In this document: piece by piece, positions 12,725 to 28,530 of the stretch
Layout of the letters: the number at the start of each line of letters is the position of its first letter
Numbering within the stretch: the first letter of the stretch is position 1
Notes under the pieces: model-generated
What the model saw: the letters and a program-made list of their open reading frames with translations, nothing else
The model's database searches: none
Told to the model about the DNA's origin: nothing
Made by a program: the position numbers and the translations under genes
NCBI GenBank assembly: GCA_902477075.1
Contig: CABSFU010000002.1
Span: 53,796-85,795, forward strand
Reading direction: 5' to 3'
DNA length: 32,000 nucleotides
Source of the DNA: an uncultured Bacillales bacterium
Lineage (GTDB): Bacteria > Bacillota_I > Bacilli_A > RF39 > UBA660

Positions 12725-13107
12725 ATATGTTTTTATTTACTTAAAATATAAAATATTAAAAGTAATAGGAGTAAAATGATAACATAAAGATGTTTTTCTC
12801 TATGTGTCAGAAACACAACCTCACTTTCTATAAAAAGTAAGGAATATTCTAATGCATTAGATATGTTCAACTATAAATATAAGGTGTTTTAAATAAAATA
12901 CCTAAAAAATTGAAATTTGATATGAATTTTGATAAGATAGATGTATAAATAAGAATAGTAATATAGTTTGTAGATAGTGAAATTCTATCATTTACTGTAT
13001 GCAAACAAAATGATTTTAAATACTTCTTCTGTTTTGCTGTTAGAAAAAGCTGTAAAGTTAATCTTAATGATTAACTTTTTGTGTGTTATAATGGTAGTGG
13101 TGATATC

Positions 13108-13740
13108 ATGAAGATTCTATTATTAGAAGACAATGAACTTATAGGAAAAGCGCTAGTCTATTTATTAAACGAAAATCATTATGAAGTGGATTTATGTACT
13201 AATATAAAAGAAGCTAAAGAGAAAAATATGAAAATCTATGATTTAATGATATTAGATATTACTTTACCAGATGGTAATGGTATTGATTTTTATCAAGATA
13301 ATAAAGAAATTAAAACAATATTTTTAACAGCTTTAGATGAAGAAGAAGATATATTAAAATGTTTTCATTTGGGGTGTGATGATTATATTACAAAACCATT
13401 TAAAACGGGTGAACTATTAGCGAAAATAAAAAGAATTTTAAATAAAGAAAATCAAATAAAAGTAAAAAATATTGTAGTAGATTTGGATAAGATGATCGTA
13501 TATAAAGATGGTGAAGAAATCACTTTGTCCCAATTAGAATATAAAATATTAGTTTTACTATTTCATAATTTAGATAAAGTAATTACTCGGGAATTTATTT
13601 TAAATCAAATATGGGATGAATCGGAAAATTTTGTAGAAGATAATACATTAACGGTTTATATAAAAAGAATACGATCTAAGATAGGTGACAATATTATAAA
13701 AACAATAAAAGGAATAGGATATAGGATTGATAGCAAATGA
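13108..13740 (+). CDS. OmpR/PhoB-family response regulator
   Basis: Receiver domain (MKILLLEDN, LMILDITLPDGNG, K at ITKPF) plus winged-helix output (LSQLEYKILVLL, TLTVYIKRIRSKI, GIGYRI). ATG 13108 chosen over track GTG 13081. Confidence 0.9.
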   Translation: MKILLLEDNELIGKALVYLLNENHYEVDLCTNIKEAKEKNMKIYDLMILDITLPDGNGIDFYQDNKEIKTIFLTALDEEEDILKCFHLGCDDYITKPFKTGELLAKIKRILNKENQIKVKNIVVDLDKMIVYKDGEEITLSQLEYKILVLLFHNLDKVITREFILNQIWDESENFVEDNTLTVYIKRIRSKIGDNIIKTIKGIGYRIDSK

Positions 13741-14939
13741 AAGAAAAAAGTCATATAAAAATAATTATATTATTTAGTTTATTACTGATATTATTTGTGT
13801 TTATTAGTAGTTGCATTACAAAAAAACAATATCATGAATATAGTAGCTCTGCTAATAAAAAAATAAACAATTTAATAGCTTTGATAGAAGAAAAAAATAT
13901 AAATATTACAAATGATGAAATATTTGAAATATTAAATGACGATAAAGAAAATGTGATTCGTCAATATGGAATTGATATAAATCAAGATAGTATTTTGACA
14001 GATTATCCAAATATTCAAAAAAAATATAAGATGATTTATAGTATAATATTAGTCATTTATACAAGCTTTATTTTCTTAATTTATTTTTATTATCACTACA
14101 AAGAACAAAAAAAGATAAAACAAATTACGAATTATATTAAAGAAATTAATCAAAAAAAATATTATTTGGATATAAAAGACAATGGTGAAGATGAGTTATC
14201 TTTATTAAAAAATGAATTGTATAAAATAACAGTGATGTTAAAAGAACAAACAGAATTATTAAAAAAAGATAAAATCAATTTAAAAGATTCCATTAGTGAT
14301 ATTTCTCATCAATTAAAAACCCCTTTAACTTCTATTTCCATTTTATTGGATGATATTTTAGAAAATCCTAACATGAATAAAAAAACAAGAGATGAATTTT
14401 TATATAATATTCGACAAGAAGCAAATAATATTCAAATTTTAGTTCAAAATTTATTAAAATTATCTAAATTTGATGCAAATGTAATTGAATTTAAAAAAGA
14501 AAAAATAAATGTAAAAGATTTAATCAATCATTCTTTAAACAAATTAGAAATTATAAGAGAATTAAAAAATATATCCATTCATGTGGATTGCGATAAAAAA
14601 ATTTATATTAATGGTGATTCTACTTGGGAAGCAGAAGCTATATCTAATATCTTAAAAAATTCGATTGAATATTCTGATAAGGATGCTAATATTGATATTA
14701 AAGTAGAAGATAATCCTTTTTATGTAAAAATTATAATAAAAGATTATGGAAAAGGAATAAAAGAAAAAGACTTAAAAAATATTTTTAAAAGATTTTATAA
14801 AGGGGAAAATTCTATTTCTGGTAGTATTGGAATAGGATTAAATTTATCTCAAAAAATAGTAGAAAAAGATAATGGTTTTATAGATGTTTCATCTACAGAA
14901 GAGGAAACTGCTTTTGAAATAAAATATATTAAAAGTTAA
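13737..14939 (+). CDS. Sensor histidine kinase (two TM, HisKA + HATPase_c)
   Basis: H-box SHQLKTPLTS, N-box NILKNSIEYS, G-boxes DYGKGI and GIGLNL. Overlaps the regulator gene by 4 nt. Confidence 0.9.
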   Translation: MKEKSHIKIIILFSLLLILFVFISSCITKKQYHEYSSSANKKINNLIALIEEKNINITNDEIFEILNDDKENVIRQYGIDINQDSILTDYPNIQKKYKMIYSIILVIYTSFIFLIYFYYHYKEQKKIKQITNYIKEINQKKYYLDIKDNGEDELSLLKNELYKITVMLKEQTELLKKDKINLKDSISDISHQLKTPLTSISILLDDILENPNMNKKTRDEFLYNIRQEANNIQILVQNLLKLSKFDANVIEFKKEKINVKDLINHSLNKLEIIRELKNISIHVDCDKKIYINGDSTWEAEAISNILKNSIEYSDKDANIDIKVEDNPFYVKIIIKDYGKGIKEKDLKNIFKRFYKGENSISGSIGIGLNLSQKIVEKDNGFIDVSSTEEETAFEIKYIKS

Positions 14940-14961
14940 AATGATATCATTTTAACTTTTT
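14935..14961 (+). terminator. Terminator (perfect 22-nt palindrome + T-run)
   Basis: GTTAAAATGATATCATTTTAAC (14935-14956) followed by TTTTT; overlaps the kinase stop codon. Confidence 0.75.
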
Positions 14962-15110
14962 AGAATGCTTGAAATCATAAGATAGTAATACTAAATCATT
15001 AAAATAGCATACGAAAATAAAAAAATGGTAATTTGAATCATAAAAAAAGATCTGCTAAAGTGTAGTAGACAGGAGATGATAGATATTCCATAAAGAGTTT
15101 ATAAAACATA

Positions 15111-15143
15111 AAAAAGAAACTATTTTTATCTAAATAGTCTTCT
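15111..15143 (-). terminator. Terminator of the collagen-like gene
   Basis: AGAAACTATTT / AAATAGTCTTCT hairpin with one bulge; the A-run on the plus strand is a T-run on the minus strand. Confidence 0.6.
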
Positions 15144-15145
15144 TG

Positions 15146-15838
15146 TTAAGCTTCTTGTCTTCCTAAATACTCAATGAATATAGTTACTAATGAATTTGTA
15201 AAATATGAATTAGAATTAATATCTTGCAAATCTGGTGAATTTAAATAGAATGTTTGGTTCCCTAAGTTAACGATTTCGTAGGCATCTTCTGTATTAACAA
15301 TAGAAATAATTCCTTCTGCAACAATTTGATTTGCTATTTCATTATTTTTCCAACAACTTGCTCCTATATAAACATCATCAGTATTTGTTTTTCTAAAACC
15401 AATTGTAATGAAATCGGTTTTTGTATCAAAAGCAGCAGGTAATTTGTGATAAGCAGATATGGTAATGCTTACGTGATAATATCCGATTGTATTAAATTGA
15501 ATCATATTATTATTTAGCGTGACTAAATTCGTCATGTCTAATTCTTTTCTGGTAATGGGAATTTGTTTTAACACAGGAACAATGATGCCATTTTCTTCCA
15601 CTCCATCATTATAAGTCACTAAATAGCTGGATCGAGCATTATTATTTCCTTGCATTCCTTGTGGACCTGTTGGACCAATATCACCTTTTTCTCCCTGCAT
15701 TCCTTGTGGCCCGATATCACCTTTTTCACCTTTAGGACCCGTTGGGCCTATTAAAAGATAGGGATATTTTTTATTAAAATCTATTTTTTTTAAGGCTTTT
15801 TGATATATTTCTTTATCTGAATTGCATTTTTTATTCAT
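15146..15838 (-). CDS. Collagen-like (G-X-Y) repeat protein with globular C-terminal domain, BclA/exosporium-like
   Basis: 11 uninterrupted G-X-Y triplets (GPTGPKGEKGDIGPQGMQGEKGDIGPTGPQGMQ, nt 15650-15748). ATG at 15838 is preceded by AGGAGG; the track start 15886 lacks an RBS. Confidence 0.8.
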   Translation of the reverse strand: MNKKCNSDKEIYQKALKKIDFNKKYPYLLIGPTGPKGEKGDIGPQGMQGEKGDIGPTGPQGMQGNNNARSSYLVTYNDGVEENGIIVPVLKQIPITRKELDMTNLVTLNNNMIQFNTIGYYHVSITISAYHKLPAAFDTKTDFITIGFRKTNTDDVYIGASCWKNNEIANQIVAEGIISIVNTEDAYEIVNLGNQTFYLNSPDLQDINSNSYFTNSLVTIFIEYLGRQEA

Positions 15839-15964
15839 AAAAAACCTCCTTTTAGTATAGAATATGCTTTTAAAATATTGTTGCATAATGTAAAATACTA
15901 TTTTAATGGTTCAAAACTGAAAATAATAAAGTATAATAGATATTAGTGAAGAAAGGAAAAAATT

Positions 15965-16294
15965 ATGGTTGGTAAAAAACAAGAAGAAAATATAACAAAA
16001 AGAATTTTAATTACATTAAAACTATTTTATGAAAATAAAGGAAGAATTAATGATGAACAATTAGCTAGATTAGTATCGATGGAAGGAATTGTTACTTCTT
16101 CTAGTACGGTTGGTCGTGATTTGACAAGTAATCGTTTAAAAAAACTAATTCCAGAAAATGAGTATGAAGAAATTCAAAGATTGCGTAAACAAAATAAAGA
16201 ACTAGGTAAGAGTTTAGGAGGCAAAAATTTTGCTTTTTATAACGATTGTACCAGAAATGAAAGTGGACAATTTACGGGAAGTAAAAAAAGATAA
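15965..16294 (+). CDS. SpoIIID-like HTH transcriptional regulator
   Basis: SSSTVGRDLT...LIPENEYEEIQRL....LGGKN parallels the SpoIIID pattern SKSTVHKDLT..LP.I....EV..IL......GG from memory. Confidence 0.5.
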   Translation: MVGKKQEENITKRILITLKLFYENKGRINDEQLARLVSMEGIVTSSSTVGRDLTSNRLKKLIPENEYEEIQRLRKQNKELGKSLGGKNFAFYNDCTRNESGQFTGSKKR

Positions 16295-16316
16295 CTAAGT
16301 ATATAGAAAAGAAAGG

Positions 16317-16895
16317 ATGGAAATTTTGTTAGAATTAAGAAAAATAAGTAAAATTTATCAAATAAATGATTTTAAACAAAAGGCATTGAATCATGTAGAT
16401 TTAAAGTTTAGAGATAATGAATTTGTATCTATTTTAGGACCAAGTGGAAGTGGAAAAACTACACTTTTAAATATTATTGGTGGTTTAGATCAATATACCG
16501 ATGGTGATTTAATAATTAATGGAATATCTACAAAAAATTATAAAAATCAAGATTGGGATACCTATCGCAATCATAAAATCGGTTTTGTTTTTCAAAACTA
16601 TAATTTAATACCACATCAAACGGCTTTAGTAAATGTAGAGTTAGCTTTAACACTTTCTGGTATTTCAAAAGAGGAGAGAAGAAAAAGAGCAATTACTGTT
16701 TTAAAAAAAGTAGGTTTGGAAAAACATATTCATAAAAAACCAAACCAAATGTCTGGTGGACAAATGCAAAGAATTGCGATTGCAAGAGCACTTATTAATA
16801 ATCCAGATATTTTATTAGCTGATGAACCAACAGGAGCATTGTTTAAATCCAAAAAATATAATAGTTGTAATTTAAGGCCTTTATATTCCTTATAA
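16317..16895 (+). pseudogene. ABC transporter ATP-binding gene truncated after Walker B
   Basis: Walker A GPSGSGKTT, signature MSGGQMQR and Walker B ILLADEPTGAL are intact. After about nt 16841 the frame reads unrelated FKSKKYNSCNLRPLYSL*. D-loop remainder and H-loop are absent, and no partner permease follows. Confidence 0.75.
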
Positions 16896-16918
16896 TACTA
16901 AATAAATTAATATTCATT

Positions 16919-16947
16919 GATATAGAAAAAAATCTATATCTTTTTTT
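16919..16947 (+). terminator. Terminator at island left end
   Basis: GATATAGA (16919-16926) / TCTATATC (16933-16940) followed by TTTTTTT. Confidence 0.7.
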
Positions 16948-16993
16948 ATTACAAATATTTTTGTCAAAGAAATAATAAAGGGGGGTTGATAAA

Positions 16994-17872
16994 ATGACAA
17001 ATGAAATAATAAAAGTAGGAACTTTTTTTAGTGGAATAGGATCACCGGAAAAAGCTTTAGAAAGATTAAAAAGTGAAGGACATATTAAAGATTATAAAGT
17101 AGAATTTTTTTCAGAAATAGATAAAAATGCAATTAAAAGCTATTGTGTAATTCATAATGTTGATGAAAGTTTAAATCTCGGTAGTATAACTGATATTAAA
17201 GGTAAAGATTTACCATATTGTGATTTATGGATAGGTGGTTTTCCATGTCAAGATATATCTTGTGCTGGTAAGATGAAAGGATTTGATTTTACAAGTTCTA
17301 CAAGATCATCACTTGGTTGGGAGATGATTAGATTACTTAAAGAAGTAAAAACAAAACCCAAATATGTTATATTTGAAAACGTAGCTATGATAACAAGTAG
17401 GAAATTTAAGGAAACATTAAGCTTATTTAAAGAGGATTTAATAAGTTTAGGATATACATTATATGATCAATTATTAAGCGCTACTGATTATGGAATACCT
17501 CAAACTAGAACGAGGTATTTTTTAATCGCTATTTTAGATAATCAAAAAAATTTTAAATTTCCAGAAAAGATAGAAAATAATATAATTTTAAAAAATTTAT
17601 TAGAGGAATGTGTAGATGAAAAATATTACTTAACAAATTCTAATTATGTAATTAGAGGAGATAAAAGAATATTTAAGCATAAGAATAGAGAAGATATAGA
17701 ATATGAAGTGGATATGAAAAAACACTTAATTGGTGGTGTTTGTGGAATCGATAAACATACAAAGTTTGCTATATCATCAAGATTATTCTCTATTTATGGT
17801 AATTCACCTACATTGACGGCAAGCAATACATCGGATAACAGTAAAATTGTTGTAGAAAGTGAGGCAGAATAA
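16994..17872 (+). CDS. DNA (cytosine-5)-methyltransferase, N-terminal part (motifs I-VIII + target recognition region)
   Basis: Motif I FFSGIGS, motif IV GGFPCQDIS, motif VI FENV, motif VIII QTRTRYFLIA. Stops before motifs IX and X. Confidence 0.85.
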   Translation: MTNEIIKVGTFFSGIGSPEKALERLKSEGHIKDYKVEFFSEIDKNAIKSYCVIHNVDESLNLGSITDIKGKDLPYCDLWIGGFPCQDISCAGKMKGFDFTSSTRSSLGWEMIRLLKEVKTKPKYVIFENVAMITSRKFKETLSLFKEDLISLGYTLYDQLLSATDYGIPQTRTRYFLIAILDNQKNFKFPEKIENNIILKNLLEECVDEKYYLTNSNYVIRGDKRIFKHKNREDIEYEVDMKKHLIGGVCGIDKHTKFAISSRLFSIYGNSPTLTASNTSDNSKIVVESEAE

Positions 17873-18042
17873 TGAGAATCAGAAGGTTAACACCAAAAGA
17901 AACGTGGAGGTTAATGGGATTTGATGATAATGATTTTGAAAAAGCGAGTAAAGTTTGTAGTGAAACTAATCTTTATCATCAAGCGGGAAATTCTATTGTA
18001 GTGAATGTAATGTATTCAATTTTAAAAGAATTACTAAAATAA
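17872..18042 (+). CDS. DNA (cytosine-5)-methyltransferase, C-terminal part (motifs IX-X), separate 56-aa ORF
   Basis: MRIRRLTPKETWRLMGFDD (motif IX) and AGNSIVVNV (motif X). ATG overlaps the upstream TAA (TAATG) in a different frame. Below the ORF-track size cutoff. Confidence 0.75.
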   Translation: MRIRRLTPKETWRLMGFDDNDFEKASKVCSETNLYHQAGNSIVVNVMYSILKELLK

Positions 18043-18049
18043 AAAGATG

Positions 18050-18313
18050 CTATTTTGCATCCTTATTATTCTCCATAAGTTTCTCATAACCATCAAAAAA
18101 ATTTCTGATATCAAAATTATATTTTTGCGCTAAAAAGAAAAGGGTATCCAGTGAAATTCCTGTATCTACATTTGGACTTTCTATGTGAGATATAAAACTT
18201 CTACTCATATCAGTATCTTCTGCCATCTTTTCTTGTGATTTACCAATTATATCTTTTCTTATGGATTTCATATTTTGTCCTATAAGGGCGAAAAGTTCAT
18301 AAGTATTTTTCAC
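18050..18313 (-). CDS. Xre-family HTH regulator
   Basis: 87 aa; HTH_3 pattern IRKD..KSQEKMAEDTDMSRSFISHIES. Confidence 0.75.
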   Translation of the reverse strand: MKNTYELFALIGQNMKSIRKDIIGKSQEKMAEDTDMSRSFISHIESPNVDTGISLDTLFFLAQKYNFDIRNFFDGYEKLMENNKDAK

Positions 18314-18455
18314 AAAAATCCCTCCTATATATAATTTTATAGGAAATATTGATTTTATACTGCTCTCTTATAAGGAGCAATTTTGTTGCACGGTATTAAT
18401 ACTTTTGTGTTATAATTAAATTGGCACGAAAAAAGAATACTTTAGATAGTATTCT

Positions 18456-18719
18456 TTATCGCCTAGGAATACGACGATTTTCAATATTTTTCCTTTTCTC
18501 AAATAATTGGAAAAGTTCAACATTAAGTGTAGTTGCGATGTGATCAATATAGTCGATTCTAGTATTTCTTTTAGCATTTTCTAAATTAGATACATAAGTA
18601 GGTGTAGTTCCAAGTTTATCGGCAAAATCTTCTTGAGACCAACCTTTTTGTAATCTATAATACACAATATTATTTGCTAAAATATTACGAGCATTTGATT
18701 TCAATTTTATTGTCATCAC
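18456..18719 (-). CDS. Xre/cI-like HTH repressor
   Basis: 87 aa; YRLQKGWSQEDFADKLGTTPTYVSNLENAKRN is a classic HTH_3 signature. Divergent from the plus-strand island operon. Confidence 0.8.
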   Translation of the reverse strand: MMTIKLKSNARNILANNIVYYRLQKGWSQEDFADKLGTTPTYVSNLENAKRNTRIDYIDHIATTLNVELFQLFEKRKNIENRRIPRR

Positions 18720-18880
18720 ATCCTTCCTTTTTACTTACTACTATTGTAATAAGTTTATGAAAATCGAACCATACTAACTATGTAGTAAGTTATCTTAATT
18801 ATAGTAAATTAAAAAGGGAAAAATGTTGGATTTTGTGCTAAAACAAAAAGGTAGATATTTTATAAGAAAAGGAGCTAGAT

Positions 18881-19369
18881 ATGAACAAAGAAAATTTAAA
18901 TAGATATGTTAAAGAAATATCTGATATTTTAGACGGCAAAATTAAAATTATTACCTCAATTGAATATTACTATGATTTAGAAAAACTAACATCTTCACTA
19001 AAAGATTTATCTGATATAGAAGCTGAAAATGTTTTAGAACAATTGATTAATGAAAAACTAGAACAAATTAAGAAAAGTGATAAAGCAGATAAATTTAGAG
19101 AAAATAATAGACTTGTGGATGATGTAACTGAATTCTTCTATGATGATAAAGAAGAAGATGGTGCTGTTGTTGAAGAAGGAAGTTGCATAGCAACAGATTT
19201 AGTTTTAAAAACAATAGGTATAAATGGTAGAAAAATTGAATTACCAGTAAAGATTTCATATATAAAAGAATATTGTATAAGTAATATTATTGAGGAAAAG
19301 GATATAAGAAAAACGTTGTTGTGGATAGTTTTAGAACTATCAGTTGTAAGTTATTTTTTAAACAATTAA
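18881..19369 (+). CDS. Hypothetical acidic protein
   Basis: 162-aa ORF with RBS (AAAAGGAG) and a following hairpin. No recognisable motif. Confidence 0.5.
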   Translation: MNKENLNRYVKEISDILDGKIKIITSIEYYYDLEKLTSSLKDLSDIEAENVLEQLINEKLEQIKKSDKADKFRENNRLVDDVTEFFYDDKEEDGAVVEEGSCIATDLVLKTIGINGRKIELPVKISYIKEYCISNIIEEKDIRKTLLWIVLELSVVSYFLNN

Positions 19370-19420
19370 AAATAACATATATAAGTAGTAGTTAGCAGTA
19401 CCTAAATCTACCTTTTTAAG

Positions 19421-19449
19421 ACACTTCTAATACTATGGAAGTGTTTTAT
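19421..19449 (+). terminator. Hairpin/terminator between the hypothetical gene and avd
   Basis: ACACTTC (19421-19427) / GAAGTGT (19438-19444) then TTT. It overlaps the ORF-track start 19435, which favours the internal ATG 19492 for avd. Confidence 0.5.
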
Positions 19450-19491
19450 ATTGTAATTAAGTTATATTTATATAGAAAAGGTCGTGATTTG

Positions 19492-20079
19492 ATGTTACAA
19501 GTTAGTAGAGCCAACAATCTTAAAGTTCCAAAAGCATTAGAAAATACTATTGATAATTTAAATAGTGTTGATGACAAAGTTGCAGTAAAACAAGCTCTAG
19601 CAACAGCAAATAATCAAAAATTTAATAAGAATAAAGTAAAAGAAAATGTTGAAAAAGATGGTGAATTAGAAAAAATTGAAAAAATTCCATTTAATGCAAA
19701 TGATTTAATGGTTATTACAGTTGTAAAAAAATTAGGAGCTTATATAATTGCAGTTACTGAAAAATCTCCAGCTAAATATAGAGGGGTGTTTGTTAATCGC
19801 ATGCAAAATTTATCATTAGAAATATTAGAGTTGCTTTTACAAGCAAATTTTGTAAGAATAGATTGCTTAGATAATAAAAAAAAGAGAGAAGAATATCAAA
19901 AGGATGCAATAATAAAGTTAAAAATGTTAGGTTATATATCAATGGTAGCAGAAAATTCAAATTGTATTTTATCTAGACAATTTAAACAAATCTCTATACA
20001 AATTGGTGAATCTATTAACTTGATAGCAGCATGGAAGAAAAGCGATGATTCTAGATGGAACAGTCGTACAAATAATTAA
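19492..20079 (+). CDS. avd: DGR accessory variability determinant (Avd-like four-helix-bundle protein) with N-terminal extension
   Basis: The C-terminal part of about 120 aa (VITVVKKLGAYIIAVTEKSPAKYRGVFVNRMQNLSLEILELLLQAN...IAAWKKS) matches the Avd / 23S-IVS-protein helical pattern from memory. Sits immediately upstream of TR and RT. Start could be 19435 or 19492. Confidence 0.7.
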   Translation: MLQVSRANNLKVPKALENTIDNLNSVDDKVAVKQALATANNQKFNKNKVKENVEKDGELEKIEKIPFNANDLMVITVVKKLGAYIIAVTEKSPAKYRGVFVNRMQNLSLEILELLLQANFVRIDCLDNKKKREEYQKDAIIKLKMLGYISMVAENSNCILSRQFKQISIQIGESINLIAAWKKSDDSRWNSRTNN

Positions 20080-20124
20080 AGGATTTTAAACCGAAAGGTT
20101 TTTAATTAAGTAAATAATTTATTC

Positions 20125-20449
20125 TAGCGGCTTTGCTTGTGTTGCGCCTTCGGCGCAGGGCTTTGTCTTTGTCCGCGCGGTCAATAAGAATGGTAATAGG
20201 AACAACAAATATAGATACAAACGCAATGGTGCTGTTCGCCCAGATTTGCTTTTGAAGAGATTATAAAATCTAAAAAACAGGTCAGAGAAATATATTTTAA
20301 GTAAAATATATCAGAACTTTAAAGCAAAGGAATTATTTACTTTTCTAACCGCTATAATAGTGCGGTGGATAAATTTTAGTGCTCACACCAACAACGATAT
20401 GTATGTATTTTTGAAGGTTAAAAAGGAGCACTTTTTTGGTGGTGATTAT
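20125..20449 (+). ncRNA. DGR template RNA region (GC-rich leader, TR, and about 200-nt spacer up to the RT start)
   Basis: Noncoding gap between avd and RT containing the TR. Hairpins GCGCC-ttc-GGCGC (20144-20156) and ACCGC-tataatagt-GCGGT (20348-20366); GTGCTC (20379-20384) / GAGCAC (20426-20431). Ends are not determinable from sequence. Confidence 0.45.
20170..20249 (+). repeat. DGR template repeat (TR), 80 nt
   Basis: Aligns over its full length with 21774..21854. All 53 non-A positions are identical and 12 of 27 adenines differ. In the target's frame it reads VRAVNKNGNRNNKYRYKRNGAVRPDL, rich in AAY/AAR codons. Confidence 0.95.
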
Positions 20450-21478
20450 ATGAATTTAGAGAATATATTTAGTTTTGAAAACTTATATGATGCACATAAA
20501 AAATGTAGAAAATCAAAACAACATAAAGGTGAAGTTATAAGATTTGAAGTAAACATTTCAGAGAATATTTATAAATTACAAAAAGAAATAATATCAAGGA
20601 AATATAAAGTAGGAAAATATAAGGAATTTATAATATATGAACCAAAAGAAAGATTAATACAAGCTCTTCCATATAGAGATAGAATTGTATTAAGATGTTT
20701 TTGCGATAATGTTTTAATTCCAAAGATTGAAAAAAAACTAATAAATGATAATGTTGCTTGTAGAAAAGGCAAAGGAACAAAATATGGAATGGATAGATTG
20801 AAATATTTTTTGCAAAAAGAATATTTTAAGTATAATGATAATAAAGTCTATTATTTGAAATGTGATATTCGCAAATATTTTCCTAGTATTAACCATAATA
20901 TTTTAATAAATAATCTAAAAAGGATTGACTTTTCAGATGATGAATTTTGGTTTATAAAAAAAATTATAAATGAACAACCTGATAATTTAGAAAGGGGTTT
21001 AGCATTAGGTAATCAATCAAGTCAATGGTTTGCTTTATACTATCTTGATAAAATTGATAGATTGATCAAAGAAGAATTGCAAATTAAAAGTTACGTAAGA
21101 TATATGGATGATTTTATTTTACTTCATCGTGATAAAAAGTATTTACAATATTGTTTAGAAAAAATAAATAAAGTTTGTATTGAAAAATTAGATTTGGAAC
21201 TTAATCAAAAAACACAAATAGGACTTGCATATAATGGAATTGATTTTTTAGGTTTTAATCATATTTTAACAAATAGTGGTAAGGTTATTAGAAAACTTAG
21301 GTTTTCATCTAAGCAGAGAATGAGAAAACATATTAAAACCATAAGAAAACTTAAAGATAAATCCATAATTGATGAAAAATATGTTGGTATGAGAATTAAC
21401 GCTTTTAAAGCACATTTAAAACATTCTAATGAAAAAAGTATGGACAAATTATTATCCAATTTAGATAAAAAAATATAA
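20450..21478 (+). CDS. DGR reverse transcriptase
   Basis: RT motifs PYRDRIVLR, DIRKYFPSINH, LALGNQSSQWFALYYL (the DGR-type [IL]GxxxSQ signature) and YVRYMDDFILL (YMDD). ATG 20450 is preceded by GGTGGTGA. Flanked by the TR/VR pair. Confidence 0.93.
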   Translation: MNLENIFSFENLYDAHKKCRKSKQHKGEVIRFEVNISENIYKLQKEIISRKYKVGKYKEFIIYEPKERLIQALPYRDRIVLRCFCDNVLIPKIEKKLINDNVACRKGKGTKYGMDRLKYFLQKEYFKYNDNKVYYLKCDIRKYFPSINHNILINNLKRIDFSDDEFWFIKKIINEQPDNLERGLALGNQSSQWFALYYLDKIDRLIKEELQIKSYVRYMDDFILLHRDKKYLQYCLEKINKVCIEKLDLELNQKTQIGLAYNGIDFLGFNHILTNSGKVIRKLRFSSKQRMRKHIKTIRKLKDKSIIDEKYVGMRINAFKAHLKHSNEKSMDKLLSNLDKKI

Positions 21479-21543
21479 AATTTGCAAAAATAGTAAGAAA
21501 AAATGATTTTATATGATAAAATATAGATGTGGTGATGATAAAA

Positions 21544-23467
21544 ATGAATAATCAAGATTTAACTTTATTGTCGGAAGGACAAATTTGGGGTAATGAAAAA
21601 GAATCTCAATTAGAAGTAATGAGAAAGTATGGAACAAAAGCTGCAATCACAGATTTATGTGTATTGACAGGTAGCTATTTATGCGAAGATACAGATTATA
21701 ATATTGATGAAGATAGTTCTTTAAAAGGCAGAACTAGTTGGTTTTGGACTAGATCTGATGATAACGATAATGATGTCCGCGCGGTCATTAGGGCATGGTA
21801 GTAGGTACGACAGGTATAGATACAGACGCGATGGTGCTGTTCGCCCAGCTTTGCAATCTTCTGTAATCTTTTCTCAAATCTCCCCGAACAGAGTGAGGGG
21901 ATACAACGGAACTGAAGAAGTAGAATATGGAGAATATCCACAATATGCTGCTGATTCAAGAATGCAAGGTATATTAGAATCAGAATATAATAGAGGAATG
22001 AATAAAACCGGAAGAAGTTATACATTTGATTCAGTAAAATATGACGATTATGATACAGGATTCAAGCCAGTAACTTATGAAGAATATGAATATCAAGGAA
22101 AGAAATATATTCGTATAAGAGCAAATTCTGATTTTGGTGGAAATAAATTTAAACTTTCAAATGGTGTTGAATATAGAGATGGCGATTGCGTTTGGGTAGA
22201 AGTATCACCTGTAAAATGGTTAATTGATGATAGAACAGGAATATTAGTTTCAAAAATAGGGTTAGTTTCTGGAATAAGATTTCTTGATAGAAATCATAAT
22301 TATAAAGGTGATTTTAGTAGAACAGAAATGAAGGAATATCTTGATAAATATATGATACGCGATTTAACTCAAACAGCAACATTTACTCGTGTTCAAGATA
22401 TGACTCCAGAAGAAAAAGCTCAATTTGAAGAAGAAAGAAAACAAGCTGAAAAAAGAAGAAATCCTTATGGTTTAAAATTTGGACAAGTTAGTGAAGAAGA
22501 AATTATTCAGGGTGCAATAGAAAGTGGTGTAGCAGTATTCTTGCATGGACCTTCATCAGAAGGTAAATCTGCAAGAGTAAAACAAATAGATCCTACTTGT
22601 GAAATAATTTATCTAAGAAATGCAACACCAGAAAGTTTAAATGGTAAAAGTGTTTACAATCAAGCAACAGGTGAAATGATAGATGTTAAACCAAGTTGGC
22701 TTAAAAAGTTAGAAGAAAAATGTGAAAAAGAACCAGACAGATTTCATATTTTATTTTTAGATGAAATTACAAATGCACTACCAAGTATTCAAGGTATAGC
22801 ATTTAATATAGTTTTAGATAGAGAAGTTAATGGTATTTGGAAATTGCCAGAAAACGCTAGAATAGTTGCAGCCGGTAATGATATGAAAGATTCATTAGCT
22901 GCAAATCAATTAGCAGAACCATTATTTAATAGATTTGCTCATGTTTATATTAAAACAACTACTGAAAGTTGGTTAAAATGGGCAAGTGAACATAATATAC
23001 ATCCTGCTATTTATTCATATATTGCTTATAAAAAAGGTGAAACATTAAGAAGTAAATATGATGGTGAAAAACCTAACGCAGATCCAAGAAAATGGGAAAT
23101 GGCTTCAAAAATGTTATATGCAACAGGTAGTCCAGAAATGTTAAGAGCGTTAGTAGGAGAGGATATAACAAGAGAATTTGTACAATTTTGTAATCAACAA
23201 GTTATAACATTAGATGATGTAATAAATGAAAATTATACCCAAAGAGACATACAAGCATTAAATACAGCAGAAAGATATGCAACAACTATGGGGTTATCAC
23301 AAGTTGATGATAACAACTTAGAAAAAGTAAGAGGTTTTGTTGCAGGATTAGGAGCAGAGTTTGGAGCAATTTTTGATGCTTTATGGACACATGGCGATGA
23401 AAGCAAATTAGAAAGACTTGCAGAAGCAAAACTTGCTGAAATGTCAGAAGGAGGTATAAGAAGATAA
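21544..23467 (+). CDS. DGR target (variable) protein: N-terminal VR-bearing domain fused to a MoxR/AAA_5-like ATPase; as sequenced it is interrupted by a 1-nt insertion inside the VR
   Basis: ORFs 21529..21801 and 21758..23467 are offset by +1. The TR frame is continuous across the junction, so removing 1 nt near 21793-21795 restores a protein of about 640 aa. Walker A GPSSEGKS (22547-22570), Walker B ILFLDE (22748-22765), sensor-1 IVAAGN, LFNRF. No signal peptide or TM segment visible. Confidence 0.8.
21774..21854 (+). repeat. DGR variable repeat (VR), 81 nt
   Basis: Cognate of TR with 12 A-to-N substitutions plus one extra nucleotide. The invariant GC-rich 3' end GGTGCTGTTCGCCCAG is a candidate IMH (initiation of mutagenic homing) site. 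Confidence 0.95.
21881..21901 (+). other. Short GC hairpin 27 nt downstream of VR
   Basis: TCCCC-gaacagagtga-GGGGA. DGRs often carry a hairpin/cruciform just 3' of VR; this one is weak (5 bp, 11-nt loop). Confidence 0.3.
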
Positions 23468-23859
23468 TGGAAAATAAGAAAGAAATATTACTATCATATA
23501 TAAGAGCAAATGTTGCACCAATTTTAGTTGATTTTATATCTGGTAATGATATAAATGGTGCAGTTGTATTACCCGCCAATGTTGATGTTAAAGAGTTAAA
23601 TGGTCATTATGATGGAGCTGATTTTATGCCACCAAAATGGCTTAATGAAATATTAAGTACAAATGCAAGTAAAATTTTAGTAATTGATAAAATTGATGCA
23701 ATAGCAAAAGAAGAACAATTAAAATTCTGTGAATTGTTAGAACACAGAAAAATATCTACATTTGAATTACCAAAAAGTTGTGTGATAATTGTAACAGCAA
23801 ACGAAATAAATAAAGATAAGATAAACGAAGAAATATTCTCATTAGTTGCACGAATTTGA
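23467..23859 (+). CDS. Small protein resembling a degenerate AAA+ half-domain (no Walker A)
   Basis: 130 aa; ILVIDKIDAI (Walker-B-like hhhhD), EEQLKFCELLEHRKI and CVIIVTAN (sensor-1-like) follow the AAA_5 order. The ATG overlaps the target gene's stop (TAATG). Confidence 0.6.
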   Translation: MENKKEILLSYIRANVAPILVDFISGNDINGAVVLPANVDVKELNGHYDGADFMPPKWLNEILSTNASKILVIDKIDAIAKEEQLKFCELLEHRKISTFELPKSCVIIVTANEINKDKINEEIFSLVARI

Positions 23860-23869
23860 GGTATAAGTT

Positions 23870-25468
23870 ATGAAATATGATATTGCAGCATTAAAAAGAA
23901 AAATGCTTGTTAAATATCCCTTTTTTGGGAGTGTAGTAGCAAGTGTAGGTTATAAAGAAAACAAAGATATACCAACCGCAGGTACAGATGGAGAAACAAT
24001 TTACTATAATCCTAAATATTTAGAAAGTTTAAGTGTTGAAGAACAAACTTTTATATTTGCTCATGAAGTATGTCATATTGCATTCAATCATATATTAAGA
24101 AGTGAAGGTAAAGATCCAGAGTTATGGAATATTGCTACTGATGGTGTTATTAATCAATTTTTAAAACGAGATGGATTAAAAATGGCACCGGGTGGTGTTG
24201 ATATGGCAGAAGCTATTAATTATGATGCTGAACAGTTATATGAAAAACTATTACAAGAAAAACAACAAAGACAACAGCAACAACAAAATGGACAAGGTAA
24301 TAGTCAAAGCGAACAAGGTAATCAGCAACAAAATCAACAACAAAGCAGTGGTAGTAGTCAAGGCGAAAATGGTCAACAACAATCTCAATCACAACAACAA
24401 ACTGGCGATTCACAAAATCAAGAACAAAATCAAGAAGACCAGAAACAAAATAGTGGTGCAGGACAAAGTGGAGATGAACAACAACAATCTCAACAACAAA
24501 ATAGTTCTAATAGTGGAAACTCACAAGAACAAGATAAGCAATCACAAGAACAAAGCGGTGGTGGATCTGAGAAAGATTCACAAGAAGAAGATAAATCAAA
24601 GCAAGATGTTGGACATGATACTCACAGTATGTGGGAGCAAGCAGTTAAAAAGCACAAAGAGCAACAAGAAAAATCTGATAAAAAAGAGAGCTTATTAGAT
24701 AAACTTTTAGGAAAAGATAAAAAAGAAAAAGAAAAGAGTGAACTAGAAAAGAAACAAGAAGAACTTGAAGGCATGGGAGAAAAAGATGCTTTTAAGAAAA
24801 ATCTTGAAGATAAGAAAAAGCAACTTGAAGAATTAAAAGAAGCAATTTCTAAACAAGCATCACAAGCAGGAACTTCAACAAATAGAGATGTTAGAACAGT
24901 TAATGATATTGGTACTGCAAAACCAATAGTTGATTGGCGATATGTTTTGAGAGAAGCAATTAAATATGATGTAGATTGGTCATATAAAAATGCTACATTA
25001 GAAGATGGAGTTGTTACTGCTAATTTAGAAGAACAACCAATGCCAGAAACTGAAATTGTTCTTGATACAAGTGGTTCAATAAATGAAGTATTATTAAAGA
25101 ACTTTTTAAGAGAATGTAAAAATATATTACAACATACTAAATTAAAAGTAGGATGTTTTGATACAGAATTTTATGGATTTCATGAAATTAGAACGGAAGA
25201 AGATATAGAAAATATGCGATTTGAAGGTGGTGGAGGAACTGACTTTGATGTCGCTGTAGGCGCTTTTTCAAGAAGAGTTGAAAATAAAATAATATTTACT
25301 GATGGAGATGCTTCAATGCCAGATATGTCAATTGATGCAATATGGATAGTATTTGGTGGTGAAAAAATTAGTCCAAAAGGTGGTAAAGTAATTCACATTA
25401 CATCAGAACAATTAGATAGGTTATATTCATACGAAATTGAAAGTGAAACTAAAGGTAGATCAAGATAA
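23870..25468 (+). CDS. Putative Zn-metallopeptidase (DUF2201_N-like, HExxH) + VWA-like domain protein with long Q/S/E/K-rich linker
   Basis: N-terminal KYPFFGSVV...PTAGTDGETIYYNP...FAHEVCHIAFNH (HEVCH at 24062-24076). C-terminal VWA-like region with DTSGS MIDAS motif (25064-25078), GGGGTDF and IFTDGDA. RBS GAGG precedes the start. Confidence 0.8.
   Translation: MKYDIAALKRKMLVKYPFFGSVVASVGYKENKDIPTAGTDGETIYYNPKYLESLSVEEQTFIFAHEVCHIAFNHILRSEGKDPELWNIATDGVINQFLKRDGLKMAPGGVDMAEAINYDAEQLYEKLLQEKQQRQQQQQNGQGNSQSEQGNQQQNQQQSSGSSQGENGQQQSQSQQQTGDSQNQEQNQEDQKQNSGAGQSGDEQQQSQQQNSSNSGNSQEQDKQSQEQSGGGSEKDSQEEDKSKQDVGHDTHSMWEQAVKKHKEQQEKSDKKESLLDKLLGKDKKEKEKSELEKKQEELEGMGEKDAFKKNLEDKKKQLEELKEAISKQASQAGTSTNRDVRTVNDIGTAKPIVDWRYVLREAIKYDVDWSYKNATLEDGVVTANLEEQPMPETEIVLDTSGSINEVLLKNFLRECKNILQHTKLKVGCFDTEFYGFHEIRTEEDIENMRFEGGGGTDFDVAVGAFSRRVENKIIFTDGDASMPDMSIDAIWIVFGGEKISPKGGKVIHITSEQLDRLYSYEIESETKGRSR
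24254..24875 (+). repeat. Low-complexity coding tract (CAA/CAG-rich Q/S/N/E segment, then K/E-rich segment)
   Basis: aa ~129-245 are QQRQQQQQNGQGNSQSEQGNQQQNQQQSSGSSQ...; aa ~255-335 are KEKEKSELEKKQEELE... The tract also generates the spurious ORFs 24192..24698 and 24216..24413. Confidence 0.8.
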
Positions 25469-25477
25469 AAGATAAAA

Positions 25478-25510
25478 AACATAATTCGTGGTTTTGAATT
25501 ATGTTTTTTT
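25478..25510 (+). terminator. Strong terminator ending the DGR/AAA/VWA transcription unit
   Basis: AACATAATTC (25478-25487) / GAATTATGTT (25496-25505), 10-bp stem, then T-run. Confidence 0.8.
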
Positions 25511-25565
25511 ATATACAAAAATAAAGTAAAAAATATATGTATTATATTATGTGAAAGGAGGAAAC

Positions 25566-26660
25566 ATGATAGAAACAATTGATAAAATTTATTCTAGAAA
25601 AGATGGAAGATTTGAAATTAGGTATCATTATGGATATAAGGATGATGGTACATCAAATTATAAATCTGTTTATGGTAATAGTGAGACTGAAGTAATAAAA
25701 AATTATCATAAAACTATAGATGATTTAATAAGTAAAAATGATTTACTTATATATGATAAAACTTATATTGGTTATTACATATATTTGTGGTTAAATAATT
25801 CAAAAATAAAAAATAAGAAATCAACTTATTCAAATTATCAATATACTATTAAATCTAGGATTATTCCAAAGTTTGCAAGTGTTAAGAAAAAAACAATTTC
25901 TTTGGAATTAATTAATAAATTTACAGCGGATTTGTTAAGTGAGGGTTTGGTTGAAAAAAGTGTTAAAGATATTTTAATTATATTACAGCAAATCTTGAAA
26001 TATGGTAATATTAATATCAAAATTCCAATGCCAAAAGTACCTAAAAATGAAATTCAAATTTTTAAAAAAGATGAACAAGCAAAACTTGAAGAAGAATTAC
26101 TAAAAAATATGAACGAAACAACTTTTGGTATTTATTTTTGTCTTTATACAGGTTTAAGAATTGGTGAAATATGTGCGTTACAATGGAAAGATATTGATTT
26201 AAAAAACAAAAAAATTAAAGTAAAGAAAACTTTAATTAGAATTAAAAACCCAGACGAAAATGTAAAGAAAAAAACAATTGTAATAATTGATGAACCAAAA
26301 TCTGCATCTTCTATAAGAGAAATCCCAATACCTGATTTCTTAATTTCTATTTTAACTAAATTAAGTGTTAATGTAACTCCGGAAACTTTTTTAGTATCTG
26401 GATATGAAAAGTTTGTTGAAACAAGAACATATTTCAATAGATATAAAAAGATACTTGAGCAGCTTAATTTAGAAATATATAATTTTCATGCTTTAAGGCA
26501 TACATTTGCTACCAGATGTATTGAAAATGGCTGTGATCCAAAAACTTTAAGTGAAATATTAGGACATTCAAGTGTAAAAATAACATTAGAAAGATATGTT
26601 CATCCTAATTATGAAAATAAGGTTATTATGATGAATCAACTAAAACCATTATTTTTTTAA
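25566..26660 (+). CDS. int: Tyrosine recombinase / phage-type integrase
   Basis: N-terminal arm-binding-like SRKDGRFEIRYHYGYKDDG; catalytic region TGLRIGEICAL, HALRHTFAT, LGHSSVKITLERYVH. ATG 25566 follows GAAAGGAGG. Confidence 0.9.
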   Translation: MIETIDKIYSRKDGRFEIRYHYGYKDDGTSNYKSVYGNSETEVIKNYHKTIDDLISKNDLLIYDKTYIGYYIYLWLNNSKIKNKKSTYSNYQYTIKSRIIPKFASVKKKTISLELINKFTADLLSEGLVEKSVKDILIILQQILKYGNINIKIPMPKVPKNEIQIFKKDEQAKLEEELLKNMNETTFGIYFCLYTGLRIGEICALQWKDIDLKNKKIKVKKTLIRIKNPDENVKKKTIVIIDEPKSASSIREIPIPDFLISILTKLSVNVTPETFLVSGYEKFVETRTYFNRYKKILEQLNLEIYNFHALRHTFATRCIENGCDPKTLSEILGHSSVKITLERYVHPNYENKVIMMNQLKPLFF

Positions 26661-26703
26661 AAGCATAATTTGATATGTTATATGTGTATTAATATTTTTT
26701 CCT

Positions 26704-26719
26704 AAAGTAATCTACTTTA
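26704..26719. repeat. Left arm of a 16-nt perfect inverted repeat (AAAGTAATCTACTTTA)
   Basis: Reverse complement of 26861..26876. The arm itself is an AAAGT-N5-ACTTT palindrome. Confidence 0.85.
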
Positions 26720-26860
26720 AGAAAAAATCAGTGTTTTTTTATATAAAATTCAAAAAAGTGTCTAAAAATGAGCATAAAAAAAGAACAATTTATAAATTTA
26801 TGCCCAAAAAATGACAAAAATAGTGTATAATTGTTTTAGGATATGGAAATATTCTAATCA

Positions 26861-26876
26861 TAAAGTAGATTACTTT
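26861..26876. repeat. Right arm of a 16-nt perfect inverted repeat (TAAAGTAGATTACTTT)
   Basis: Lies 141 nt from the left arm and just upstream of the GNAT RBS. A TATAAT box (26826-26831) lies between the arms. Confidence 0.85.
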
Positions 26877-26897
26877 GAGAAATGGGAGGTGTTTTTA

Positions 26898-27338
26898 ATG
26901 AATTTAGAATTCAAAGTTGCAACATTTAAAGATATTGAAGATATAATTATGTTATGTAATGAATGCTTTAATGAGAATACTGATTTAAATTACGCAAAAC
27001 GGATTTATCAAGAAAATGAGAAAGATCCAAATCAAATATACCTTATAGGAGTTTTAAATAATGAGATTGTAGCTCATGCAAAGATAAATATTATTCCAAC
27101 AATTTATGAGGATATGAATACTTATGCAATTTTAAATCATGTATGTGTTAAACCAAAATTTAGACGAGAACATATAGGAACAAAAATGCTAGATGAATGT
27201 TTTAGAATCGCTAAAGAACATAATTGCAAATGTGTTGAATTATGGTCAAAAAATTTTAGAGAGGCTGCACATGGACTTTATCATAGTTATGGATTTGAAG
27301 TTATGGATGCAAAATTCTTTTCAAAAAATGTAGATTAG
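26898..27338 (+). CDS. GNAT-family N-acetyltransferase
   Basis: ATG 26898 after GGGAGGTG; motif A region VCVKPKFRREHIGTKML. Size of about 146 aa is typical. Confidence 0.8.
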   Translation: MNLEFKVATFKDIEDIIMLCNECFNENTDLNYAKRIYQENEKDPNQIYLIGVLNNEIVAHAKINIIPTIYEDMNTYAILNHVCVKPKFRREHIGTKMLDECFRIAKEHNCKCVELWSKNFREAAHGLYHSYGFEVMDAKFFSKNVD

Positions 27339-27348
27339 GAGTTAAATT

Positions 27349-28530
27349 ATGAAAATTAGTAATGTTTATATAGGTGGTTGGTTTCAAAGAACCATGCTAC
27401 AATTATCAGAGATTTATGATTTTTTGAGAGATTGTAAAACTCAATTAAACTTAGATCAAGATAAATTGAATGAATTTCGTAAGAATTTAGAAATAGGAAA
27501 AATAGATTATGGAGTTTCAGGAGAAGAATTTATTGAGTTTACTACTGCTTTAAATATTAAAGTAAAAATATTTGAAGATGGTTTGATTGTTTTAAATAAC
27601 CAAAATGTTAGCGAAGATACATTATTTGCTGATATTGATCATGTAACTGATTATTATGAAAATAGATTATCTCCTGCATTTAGCTATTTATTTAGTTTAG
27701 GTGCACCAGTTCCGAAAGAACTTGCAAATATAGAAACAGTTTATCCATATTTTATAGTATGTGATAATGTTACAAAGGATGATATTTCTAATTTGTTAGC
27801 TAGGACAGAAAAACAAAAGTATTTTGAATTTGTAACTGATAAATATGACGTTATCAGAGGAGATAAATATTATTTTATTAATAATAAAAAACAATCTAAT
27901 GAGAATATTGAAAGATACATTGAAGAACAAATCTTTATAAGAGAATTTAAGGGACAATTACATCGTTATTTAAATATTCATAGAATTATATGGGAGAAAA
28001 TTGATACAGTAAAAGAAAATGCAAATGTCAAGGGTTCTGAAATTGTTAAGTTTACTTCAAAATTAGAAGGATATGCTAAGACAATAAATTTGATAGATGG
28101 AAGAATTAATCAAATGAGTACATATATTTCAACAAGAGAAAAAATTGCCAAAAGTGATAAAGAACTTGCAGAATTCTTGGCTATTTCAGGATATAGGTAT
28201 GAAACATTAAGAGATACATTAGATTATATAAAATATTTGTGGGCTATGACTAAAAATTATGTTTCATCAGCACAAAAATTATTTGATGGAATAAAATCAG
28301 ATGTTACTAGTAAATCTGTTGATAGTCTAACTATTGTTACATCTATGAGTGCTGGTGCATCAATCATTGGTTTGTTAACAGAAACAGCTCCTGAATTTAC
28401 AATATTCGGAGTAGTATATTTCTTCTTACTTGCATTATTAGGTTGGAGTTCAACAAAAATACTTGGAGCTATCTCTAATAAAAGAAAATATGAAGTATCT
28501 GATGTTGAATATGAGAAAGATATAAAGTAG
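27349..28530 (+). CDS. Hypothetical protein, large cytoplasmic domain + two C-terminal TM helices
   Basis: 393 aa with hydrophobic stretches LTIVTSMSAGASIIGLL and FTIFGVVYFFLLALLGW near the C-terminus. No motif recognised. Confidence 0.55.
   Translation: MKISNVYIGGWFQRTMLQLSEIYDFLRDCKTQLNLDQDKLNEFRKNLEIGKIDYGVSGEEFIEFTTALNIKVKIFEDGLIVLNNQNVSEDTLFADIDHVTDYYENRLSPAFSYLFSLGAPVPKELANIETVYPYFIVCDNVTKDDISNLLARTEKQKYFEFVTDKYDVIRGDKYYFINNKKQSNENIERYIEEQIFIREFKGQLHRYLNIHRIIWEKIDTVKENANVKGSEIVKFTSKLEGYAKTINLIDGRINQMSTYISTREKIAKSDKELAEFLAISGYRYETLRDTLDYIKYLWAMTKNYVSSAQKLFDGIKSDVTSKSVDSLTIVTSMSAGASIIGLLTETAPEFTIFGVVYFFLLALLGWSSTKILGAISNKRKYEVSDVEYEKDIK

Follow-up and report, generated by a model that had tools for sequence, protein, structure and literature searches.

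The DNA analysed here, referred to as the window, is a stretch of 32,000 nucleotides of contig CABSFU010000002.1 (assembly GCA_902477075.1) from an uncultured Bacillales bacterium, and it carries a diversity-generating retroelement (DGR). This DGR is complete and apparently functional, with an Avd-like gene, a template repeat (TR), a reverse transcriptase (RT) and one target gene with one variable repeat (VR). The gene order is Avd-TR-RT-target, so that the target lies downstream. The target gene is divided into two open reading frames (ORFs), termed ORF1 and ORF2, by one extra base within its VR. With moderate confidence, this frameshift is regarded as a genuine by-product of mutagenic retrohoming.

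The retroelement and its split target gene

A 16-mer from the 3′ end of the repeat, GGTGCTGTTCGCCCAG, is found exactly twice in the window compared to 0 occurrences expected by chance, which indicates one TR and one VR. Global alignment of the two repeats reveals 12 substitutions, all 12 of which fall at TR adenines, and one extra base in the VR. Both borders of the VR are intact. The extra base lies where AAG AAT in the TR (20186-20191) corresponds to AGG GCAT in the VR (21790-21796). An original prediction, made from the letters of the window, had described an 80-nt TR, an 81-nt VR and a one-base insertion that splits the target, and the alignment and the ORFs agree with this description. 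It had also confined the uncertainty about the extra base to 21793-21795. The position is indeed ambiguous, but the range is slightly wider, because four alignments that place the base at 21791-21794 score equally and 21795 can be reached with one more A substitution.

Upstream of the insertion, ORF1 reads ..DVRAVIRAW (WFWTRSDDNDNDVRAVIRAW) and then meets TAG TAG (21799-21804). The conserved VR end, GSRYDRYRYRRDGAVRPAL, can be read only in the +1 frame, within ORF2. These two frames had been predicted as ORFs 21529..21801 and 21758..23467, and both are seen in the sequence. The first ~12 codons of ORF2 are VR-upstream sequence read out of frame, and its remaining content is the second half of an N-terminal domain, a linker and a MoxR-type AAA+ ATPase. 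Removal of one base produces a 640-aa ORF, which full-length homologues match over 100% of its length at 93-97% identity. Since the rest of the target is undamaged after this one-base removal (97% identity over 100% of the length), the event is recent.

Table 1. Features of the DGR and adjoining genes, in window coordinates.
Feature	Position	Strand	Evidence or remark
162-aa ORF of unknown function, first gene of the conserved DGR module	18881..19369	+	adjoins the Avd-like gene also in L241, L244 and L057
Avd-like accessory protein, 195 aa as called	19492..20079	+	weak Pfam bAvd and NCBIfam DivGenRetAVD matches
GC-rich stem-loop (GCGCC-TTCG-GGCGC), ~10 nt 5′ of the TR	20136..20161	+	terminator-like scan
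TR, 80 nt, target-frame reading VNKNGNRNNKYRYKRNGAVRPDL	20170..20249	+	
DGR RT, 342 aa, intact	20450..21478	+	Pfam RVT_1 3e-15; PADLOC RT 4e-35
ORF1, N-terminal target fragment, 88 aa as called	21529/21535..21801	+	ends within the VR at TAG TAG
ORF2, 569 aa, remainder of the target in the +1 frame	21758..23467	+	
VR, 81 nt	21774..21854	+	12 substitutions relative to the TR, all at TR adenines
Site of the extra nucleotide, exact base ambiguous	21791..21796	+	TR AAGAAT, VR AGGGCAT
130-aa ORF, start overlaps the ORF2 stop (ATGA)	23467..23859	+	weak AAA-like match; kept in all related loci
DUF2201_N putative metallopeptidase with VWA-like DUF2201 domain	23870..25468	+	Pfam 5.6e-39 and 7e-14; kept in related loci

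The features of the locus are collected in Table 1, where loci from other samples are given as L numbers. The translated RT contains YMDD and LGNQSSQ, the latter being the DGR-type GxxxSQ motif, and its length is the same in L241, L244, L252 and L254. The longest ORF of the Avd-like gene begins at 19435, and the called length of its product is identical across all related loci. This protein matches Pfam bAvd with E 1.4e-4 (22.8 bits, below the cutoff of 40) and NCBIfam DivGenRetAVD with E 3e-5 (24 bits, below the cutoff of 80). Both matches span the whole profile and sit in the C-terminal ~110 aa of the protein. The 162-aa ORF that precedes it has no Pfam, NCBIfam or PADLOC match.

L244 has the stem-loop in the form GCACC-TTTG-GGTGC, where compensatory substitution preserves the pairing. 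The stem-loop may play a structural role in the DGR RNA, from a site that is 5′ of the TR and not downstream of the VR. The TR itself contains many AAY codons, plus four codons that can become stops under adenine mutagenesis (AAG, AAA twice and AGA). Downstream of the target, the DUF2201 protein is likely to be the VWA partner of the MoxR ATPase. Together, these genes form a conserved DGR/MoxR/VWA module of 6.6 kb (window 18864-25441).

In its intact form, the target consists of an N-terminal domain of ~270 aa, which displays the VR at residues ~78-102 of 640, followed by the MoxR-type AAA+ ATPase. A VR frameshift near the N-terminus therefore removes ~85% of the protein, including the ATPase. 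Structure prediction gave a confident model of the full protein, with a predicted local distance difference test (pLDDT) score of 83, and the AlphaFold model of residues 1-275 (window 21535-22360) is very confident, with a pLDDT of 93 and a predicted template modelling (TM) score of 0.91. The top Foldseek matches of the C-terminal half are the MoxR AAA+ proteins NorQ and CbbQ (E ~1e-9, TM score 0.6-0.66 normalised on the target). In addition, Pfam AAA_5 is matched in 6 of 29 family members, the Walker motifs GxxGKS and hhhhDE are visible in the family alignment, and the DUF2201 VWA-like protein is encoded two genes downstream. By sequence and predicted structure, the target is thus a MoxR-class AAA+ ATPase with a likely VWA partner. 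A PDB sequence search, NCBIfam and PADLOC returned nothing for the target.

The VR of this protein is not carried on a C-terminal C-type lectin or Ig-like fold, which is the usual but not strictly defining arrangement in DGRs. Foldseek comparison of the modelled VR-bearing domain gave no PDB match better than E 0.16, and no C-type lectin. Weak matches to DUF6273 phage proteins were obtained in BFVD (E 0.02), and Pfam gives a DUF6273 hint in 1 of 29 family members. Judging from the model, the domain may represent a lectin-like fold that has diverged or been permuted, or else a scaffold for the VR without a solved relative. At E <= 1e-3, the family as a whole includes 7,983 cluster representatives (clusters at 50% identity), and many of them have the same full-length architecture.

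Intact and disrupted variable repeats in relatives

When the repaired 640-aa protein was used as the query, the 120 closest homologues listed were all single proteins of 640-645 aa, with 93-97% identity and 100% coverage. The spread in length results from start-codon choice, and the spacing from DVRAV to RPAL is 18 residues in each of the 120. Pooled searches yielded 142 full-length proteins with 59 distinct VR peptides, and variation among these VRs is restricted to codons with TR adenines. Such variation, combined with the constant spacing, indicates that the DGR family is active in nature, that an intact gene is the rule, and that the window allele is a disruption. Comparison with relatives had been proposed as a check in the original prediction, and the in-frame, fixed-length VR of intact relatives bears out the disruption.

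In 9 other loci that have their own TR, all TR/VR substitutions likewise fall at adenines. This means that the disrupted VRs described below are fresh retrohoming products, not decayed relics. Specific flanks of the VR loci are GATAATGATGTCCGCGCGGT ... CAGCTTTGCAATCTTCTG. The gapped DNA pattern GTCCGCGCGGTC N{42,62} GTTCGCCC is GC-generic, and in genome and metagenome contigs it matched unrelated high-GC genomes, with ~10 true loci among the matches listed.

Disrupted loci were drawn from clusters that hold ORF1-like N-terminal fragments and the downstream 524-aa ORF, and the VR of each locus was aligned to its own TR. Five further frameshifted VRs were found in other samples, each a different VR and all shifted by -1 in the AACAACAAA tract (TR codons AAC AAC AAA). 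One of these alleles is shared by three short-read samples (L241, L242 and L243), two more come from short-read samples (L244 and L245), and the last two, with the VR at ~2385-2462 in each, come from long-read assemblies (L252 and L253). These two long-read loci are from related ENA samples and encode an identical 524-aa downstream protein. They reflect either very frequent -1 slippage at AACAACAAA or long-read homopolymer errors.

Other VRs are disrupted in different ways. The VR of L251 (2400-2470), on a 183-kb MEGAHIT contig, has a 50-nt deletion in which the entire variable tract is gone and GTCCGCGCG is fused directly to TGCTGTTCGCCC. This deletion may be due to a template jump in cDNA (complementary DNA) synthesis or to assembly collapse. 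Nonsense VRs result from AAG>TAG in one allele shared by L246 and L247 and in L249, and from AAA>TAA in L254. The stop-capable codons AAG, AAA and AGA are avoided by most TRs, and the TAG and TAA codons of these nonsense VRs match them. Three loci were dropped: L250 has an additional T in its VR (+1) but broken ORFs throughout its contig, the contig of L248 ends in the VR, and L255 has an N gap in the VR.

The disruptions are strongly concentrated. Within the first 351 nt of the gene, 10 of 11 independent disruptions lie inside the 51-nt mutagenised tract (binomial P ~4e-8), and the concentration persists without the two long-read loci (P 1.6e-6). The lone exception outside the tract is a 33-aa N-terminal fragment on 76 contigs, which looks like a fixed pseudogene of one lineage. 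VR-disrupted alleles are found in only 1-3 samples each, compared to 76-137 contigs for non-VR disruptions. This narrow spread fits short-lived VR defects that are purged or overwritten. A 70-aa query (N-terminus MITIMMSARS) for other +1 alleles returned only 5 irrelevant fragments, in a word index that needs longer queries.

A separate lineage (L185, L233 and L250) is missing 242 nt inside the RT gene (relative to window 20559-20800), which leaves RT ORFs of 165 and 187 aa. Only one VR allele, NKHGDRDDLFRYLRYG, is present in this lineage. It is very widespread, with proteins on 77, 43 and 14 contigs, as would be expected if the VR froze once the RT was lost. Some members of the lineage also have a target that is interrupted in the middle of the gene, with 158-aa and 379-aa fragments on one 516-kb contig.

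Origin of the frameshift

The recurrence of indels and stops, and their concentration in the mutagenised tract, is the pattern expected if they arise in adenine-mutagenic cDNA synthesis, and we infer that the extra base of the window itself arose in this way. In the proposed mechanism, the last mutagenic retrohoming would have delivered a cDNA with one extra nucleotide in the A-rich tract AAT AAG AAT, alongside the usual changes of adenine to any base (A-to-N). The cause would be an RT that loses register while misincorporating opposite consecutive adenines, and under the DGR model the indel-prone tracts would be AATAAGAAT and AACAACAAA. Translation would halt at TAG TAG after 85-90 residues, leaving a fragment of ~10 kDa that ends mid-VR. 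As read from the sequence, no Shine-Dalgarno-like motif precedes the ATG at 21758. Because ORF2 has no evident ribosome-binding site, the ATPase is probably not made and the target would be effectively null. Expression of the 130-aa and VWA genes could be lost as well by polarity, since the start of the 130-aa ORF overlaps the ORF2 stop. With the Avd gene, TR, RT and VR borders intact, a later retrohoming event could overwrite the defect and restore the frame. According to the original prediction, error-prone retrohoming may have left the indel as its footprint and turned the target OFF. The recurrent VR disruptions in relatives favour the footprint, while a reversible switch has found no direct support.

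This interpretation presupposes that the allele is real, and it has to be weighed against an artefact, which the original prediction had also raised. In that case, the dominant allele in the cells would be in frame, and the extra base would stem from a sequencing error or from an assembler that followed a consensus or minority path among heterogeneous VRs. The related hosts are known only from metagenome-assembled genomes (MAGs) and the matching contig comes from a Sequence Read Archive run, so that the source is probably a metagenome or a MAG. VRs are, moreover, known trouble spots for assemblers, as seen in the truncated, gapped and error-ridden loci that were dropped above. However, a Logan contig (SRR1761706) matches window 12951-27885 over 14,935 nt at 100% identity, including the 81-nt VR, and the exact 569-aa ORF2 and 88-aa ORF1 are recorded in NCBI, ENA and Logan. 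Logan contigs are built from k-mers, independently of the depositor's assembler, and this base-for-base agreement makes an assembler artefact unlikely. Since all VR variants are in the same register, no change of length is expected from a chimeric path across a mixed population. Both contigs (130 kb and 14.9 kb) also continue through the VR without a break, a sign of low heterogeneity, and the insertion context has no long homopolymer. Finally, no other gene in the window is broken apart from a split Dcm methylase. An artefact is therefore rather unlikely, and the frameshift allele is probably real.

In the split Dcm gene, a C5 cytosine DNA methylase at window 16994-18042, the N-terminal motifs lie in an ORF of 292 aa and the C-terminal QAGNS motif in one of 56 aa. 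The two ORFs meet at 17872, where stop and start overlap as ATGA. Two diverged MAGs (L058 and L088) have the gene divided in the same way, with substitutions to either side of the division. Judging from its sequence, the gene seems to encode a natural methylase of two subunits, and a frameshift error is not indicated. Given this conservation, the split was rejected as a sign of poor sequence quality.

A real frameshift could also have arisen independently of the DGR, through replication slippage or a point indel (GG>GGG, 21791-21793) after retrohoming, and its persistence would then be due to a dispensable gene. An alignment with the extra base in the G run is possible, and non-VR disruptions exist in the family (the 33-aa fragments on 76 contigs, and the 158-aa and 379-aa fragments on up to 137 contigs), so that loss without DGR error is possible. 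However, a 3-nt G run is a poor slippage substrate compared to the many longer A/T runs in this AT-rich 1.9-kb gene, and disruptions in the family cluster in the 51-nt mutagenised tract. The A-to-N changes that flank the insertion on both sides fit a single cDNA event. Such an independent indel is considered unlikely. Programmed recoding, in which a +1 ribosomal shift in the 21758-21801 overlap would yield the full-length protein, is highly improbable. ORF1 and ORF2 overlap by 44 nt and the tandem TAG codons superficially resemble stop-stimulated +1 sites, which is all that speaks for it. The two-ORF layout is not conserved, since all close relatives have single in-frame ORFs, and on this ground programmed frameshifting was rejected. 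In addition, other disrupted alleles shift in the opposite direction or carry stops, and no recognisable slippery +1 motif stands ahead of the TAG.

Several points weigh against a retrohoming origin of the window frameshift, which nevertheless remains the favoured reading. The allele is known from assemblies and may not be fixed in the population. The Logan contig may share reads with the deposited genome, in which case it excludes assembler error but not systematic read error. The insertion is equivalent to GG>GGG, and the same result could come from ordinary slippage in replication of an allele with ATT AGG CAT in frame. The five other frameshifts are all -1 at a different tract, the sole other +1 is that of the error-prone L250, and there is no second trustworthy +1 at the window site. 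Two of the five (L252 and L253) come from long-read data, where a -1 in an A run is a typical sequencing error. The sample of disrupted alleles was taken from cluster listings and is not an exhaustive census.

A more far-reaching possibility is that the mutator of this DGR family acts as a stochastic on/off switch. The 5′-proximal VR, slippage-prone A runs and stop-capable TR codons would yield a steady fraction of null alleles, each erasable by the next event; this proposal is speculative and improbable at present. Under it, and with equally little confidence, the rare frameshift, deletion and nonsense VRs would represent the “off” phase of DGR-driven phase variation of a VWA-MoxR conflict or sensor system. 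VR variants that are self-reactive or costly might lead to selection of this off phase.

Mobile context, significance and known systems

The DGR is carried by a mobile island of an uncultured gut bacterium that belongs to the Bacilli or “Tenericutes”. Where relatives have a named host, it is a MAG of uncultured gut Bacilli or “Tenericutes”, recovered from human, mouse or chicken. The 6.6-kb module travels between mobile backbones, with a Mob_Pre relaxase in L241 and L244 and a UvrD-like helicase also in L241. In the window, the module is accompanied by a tyrosine integrase (25551..26660) and the methylase, and genes for a two-component system and an ABC transporter are adjacent. Megablast of window 19400-23900 against INPHARED phages gave no match, and a protein-pattern scan of IMG/VR gave no relative. 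Identity of the element with a known phage was rejected on these results.

For one widespread gut DGR family, these results imply that mutagenic retrohoming carries a measurable cost. About 10 independent null VR alleles were found, compared to roughly at least 700 distinct full-length public sequences, and this ratio is a rough lower bound. The N-terminal position of the VR makes such errors fully inactivating, and does not merely alter the tail of the protein. For annotation, a target gene that is split exactly inside a VR should be recognised as a DGR by-product, and its parts should be joined for functional inference. The family itself is uncharacterised. It combines a DGR-diversified N-terminal domain without a solved structural relative, fused to a MoxR ATPase, with a VWA/metallopeptidase partner, and it is found on mobile elements of uncultured gut Bacilli. 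If the off alleles were truly reversible and under selection, phase variation would become a second function of DGRs.

Indels in VRs are an established phenomenon, of which the window is a new instance with unusually good comparative support. TR/VR length differences were reported in 25 of 372 DGRs, 11 of which were frameshifting (Wu et al. 2018, NAR 46:11, PMC5758913). In that survey, 74% of the indels adjoin AAC, and RT template slippage was proposed as the cause. A slippage model for the RT error profile has also come from reconstitution work (PMC12875486). The window belongs to the same class of indel, as its repeats are 80 and 81 nt long and the extra base lies opposite AAG AAT, and its relatives have -1 shifts opposite AAC AAC AAA. 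As in the cases of Wu et al., the indel is confined to the VR and lies opposite an A-rich TR motif amid the canonical A-to-N pattern. Their VRs, however, are C-terminal, so that a frameshift rewrites the tail, and this was read by the authors as extra diversification. The VR of the window is N-terminal, and its frameshift removes ~85% of the protein. Recurrence at the population level within one DGR family is added here to their observations.

The element can also be compared to slipped-strand contingency loci, which likewise undergo frameshifts in a hypermutable tract located towards the 5′ end of the gene, with on/off expression that is reversible in principle. Reversion was not observed in the window family, and its tract is rewritten by templated reverse transcription, unlike the repeats of contingency loci, which slip during replication.

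With canonical DGRs, such as those of Bordetella phage BPP-1 (Mtd) and Treponema (TvpA), the window element shares an Avd-like gene, a TR, an RT with YMDD and GxxxSQ, adenine-specific differences, one cognate VR and AAY-rich TR codons. It differs from them in its Avd-TR-RT-target order, its N-terminal VR and its stop-capable TR codons AAG, AAA and AGA. That these are the codons through which a TR can give rise to stops is noted in the reconstitution work (PMC12875486) and in a 2025 preprint (bioRxiv 10.1101/2025.03.24.644984). Moreover, the model of its VR-bearing domain has no C-type lectin or other significant match in the PDB, and the element, which matched nothing in the phage and viral collections, is not phage-borne.

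DGR-diversified vWA-MoxR (VMAP) ternary conflict systems have been described by Kaur et al. (2020, eLife, PMC7159879). Judged by gene content, the window module resembles these systems in that it combines a DGR-diversified ligand-binding domain, a MoxR AAA+ ATPase and a VWA protein in one operon. VMAP systems, whose hosts are cyanobacteria and gammaproteobacteria, have their variable FGS/CLec domain on the vWA component. In the window, by contrast, it is the MoxR ATPase that bears the variable domain, fused to its N-terminus. A DUF2201 metallopeptidase/VWA protein takes the place of the VWA partner here, and gut Bacilli are the hosts.

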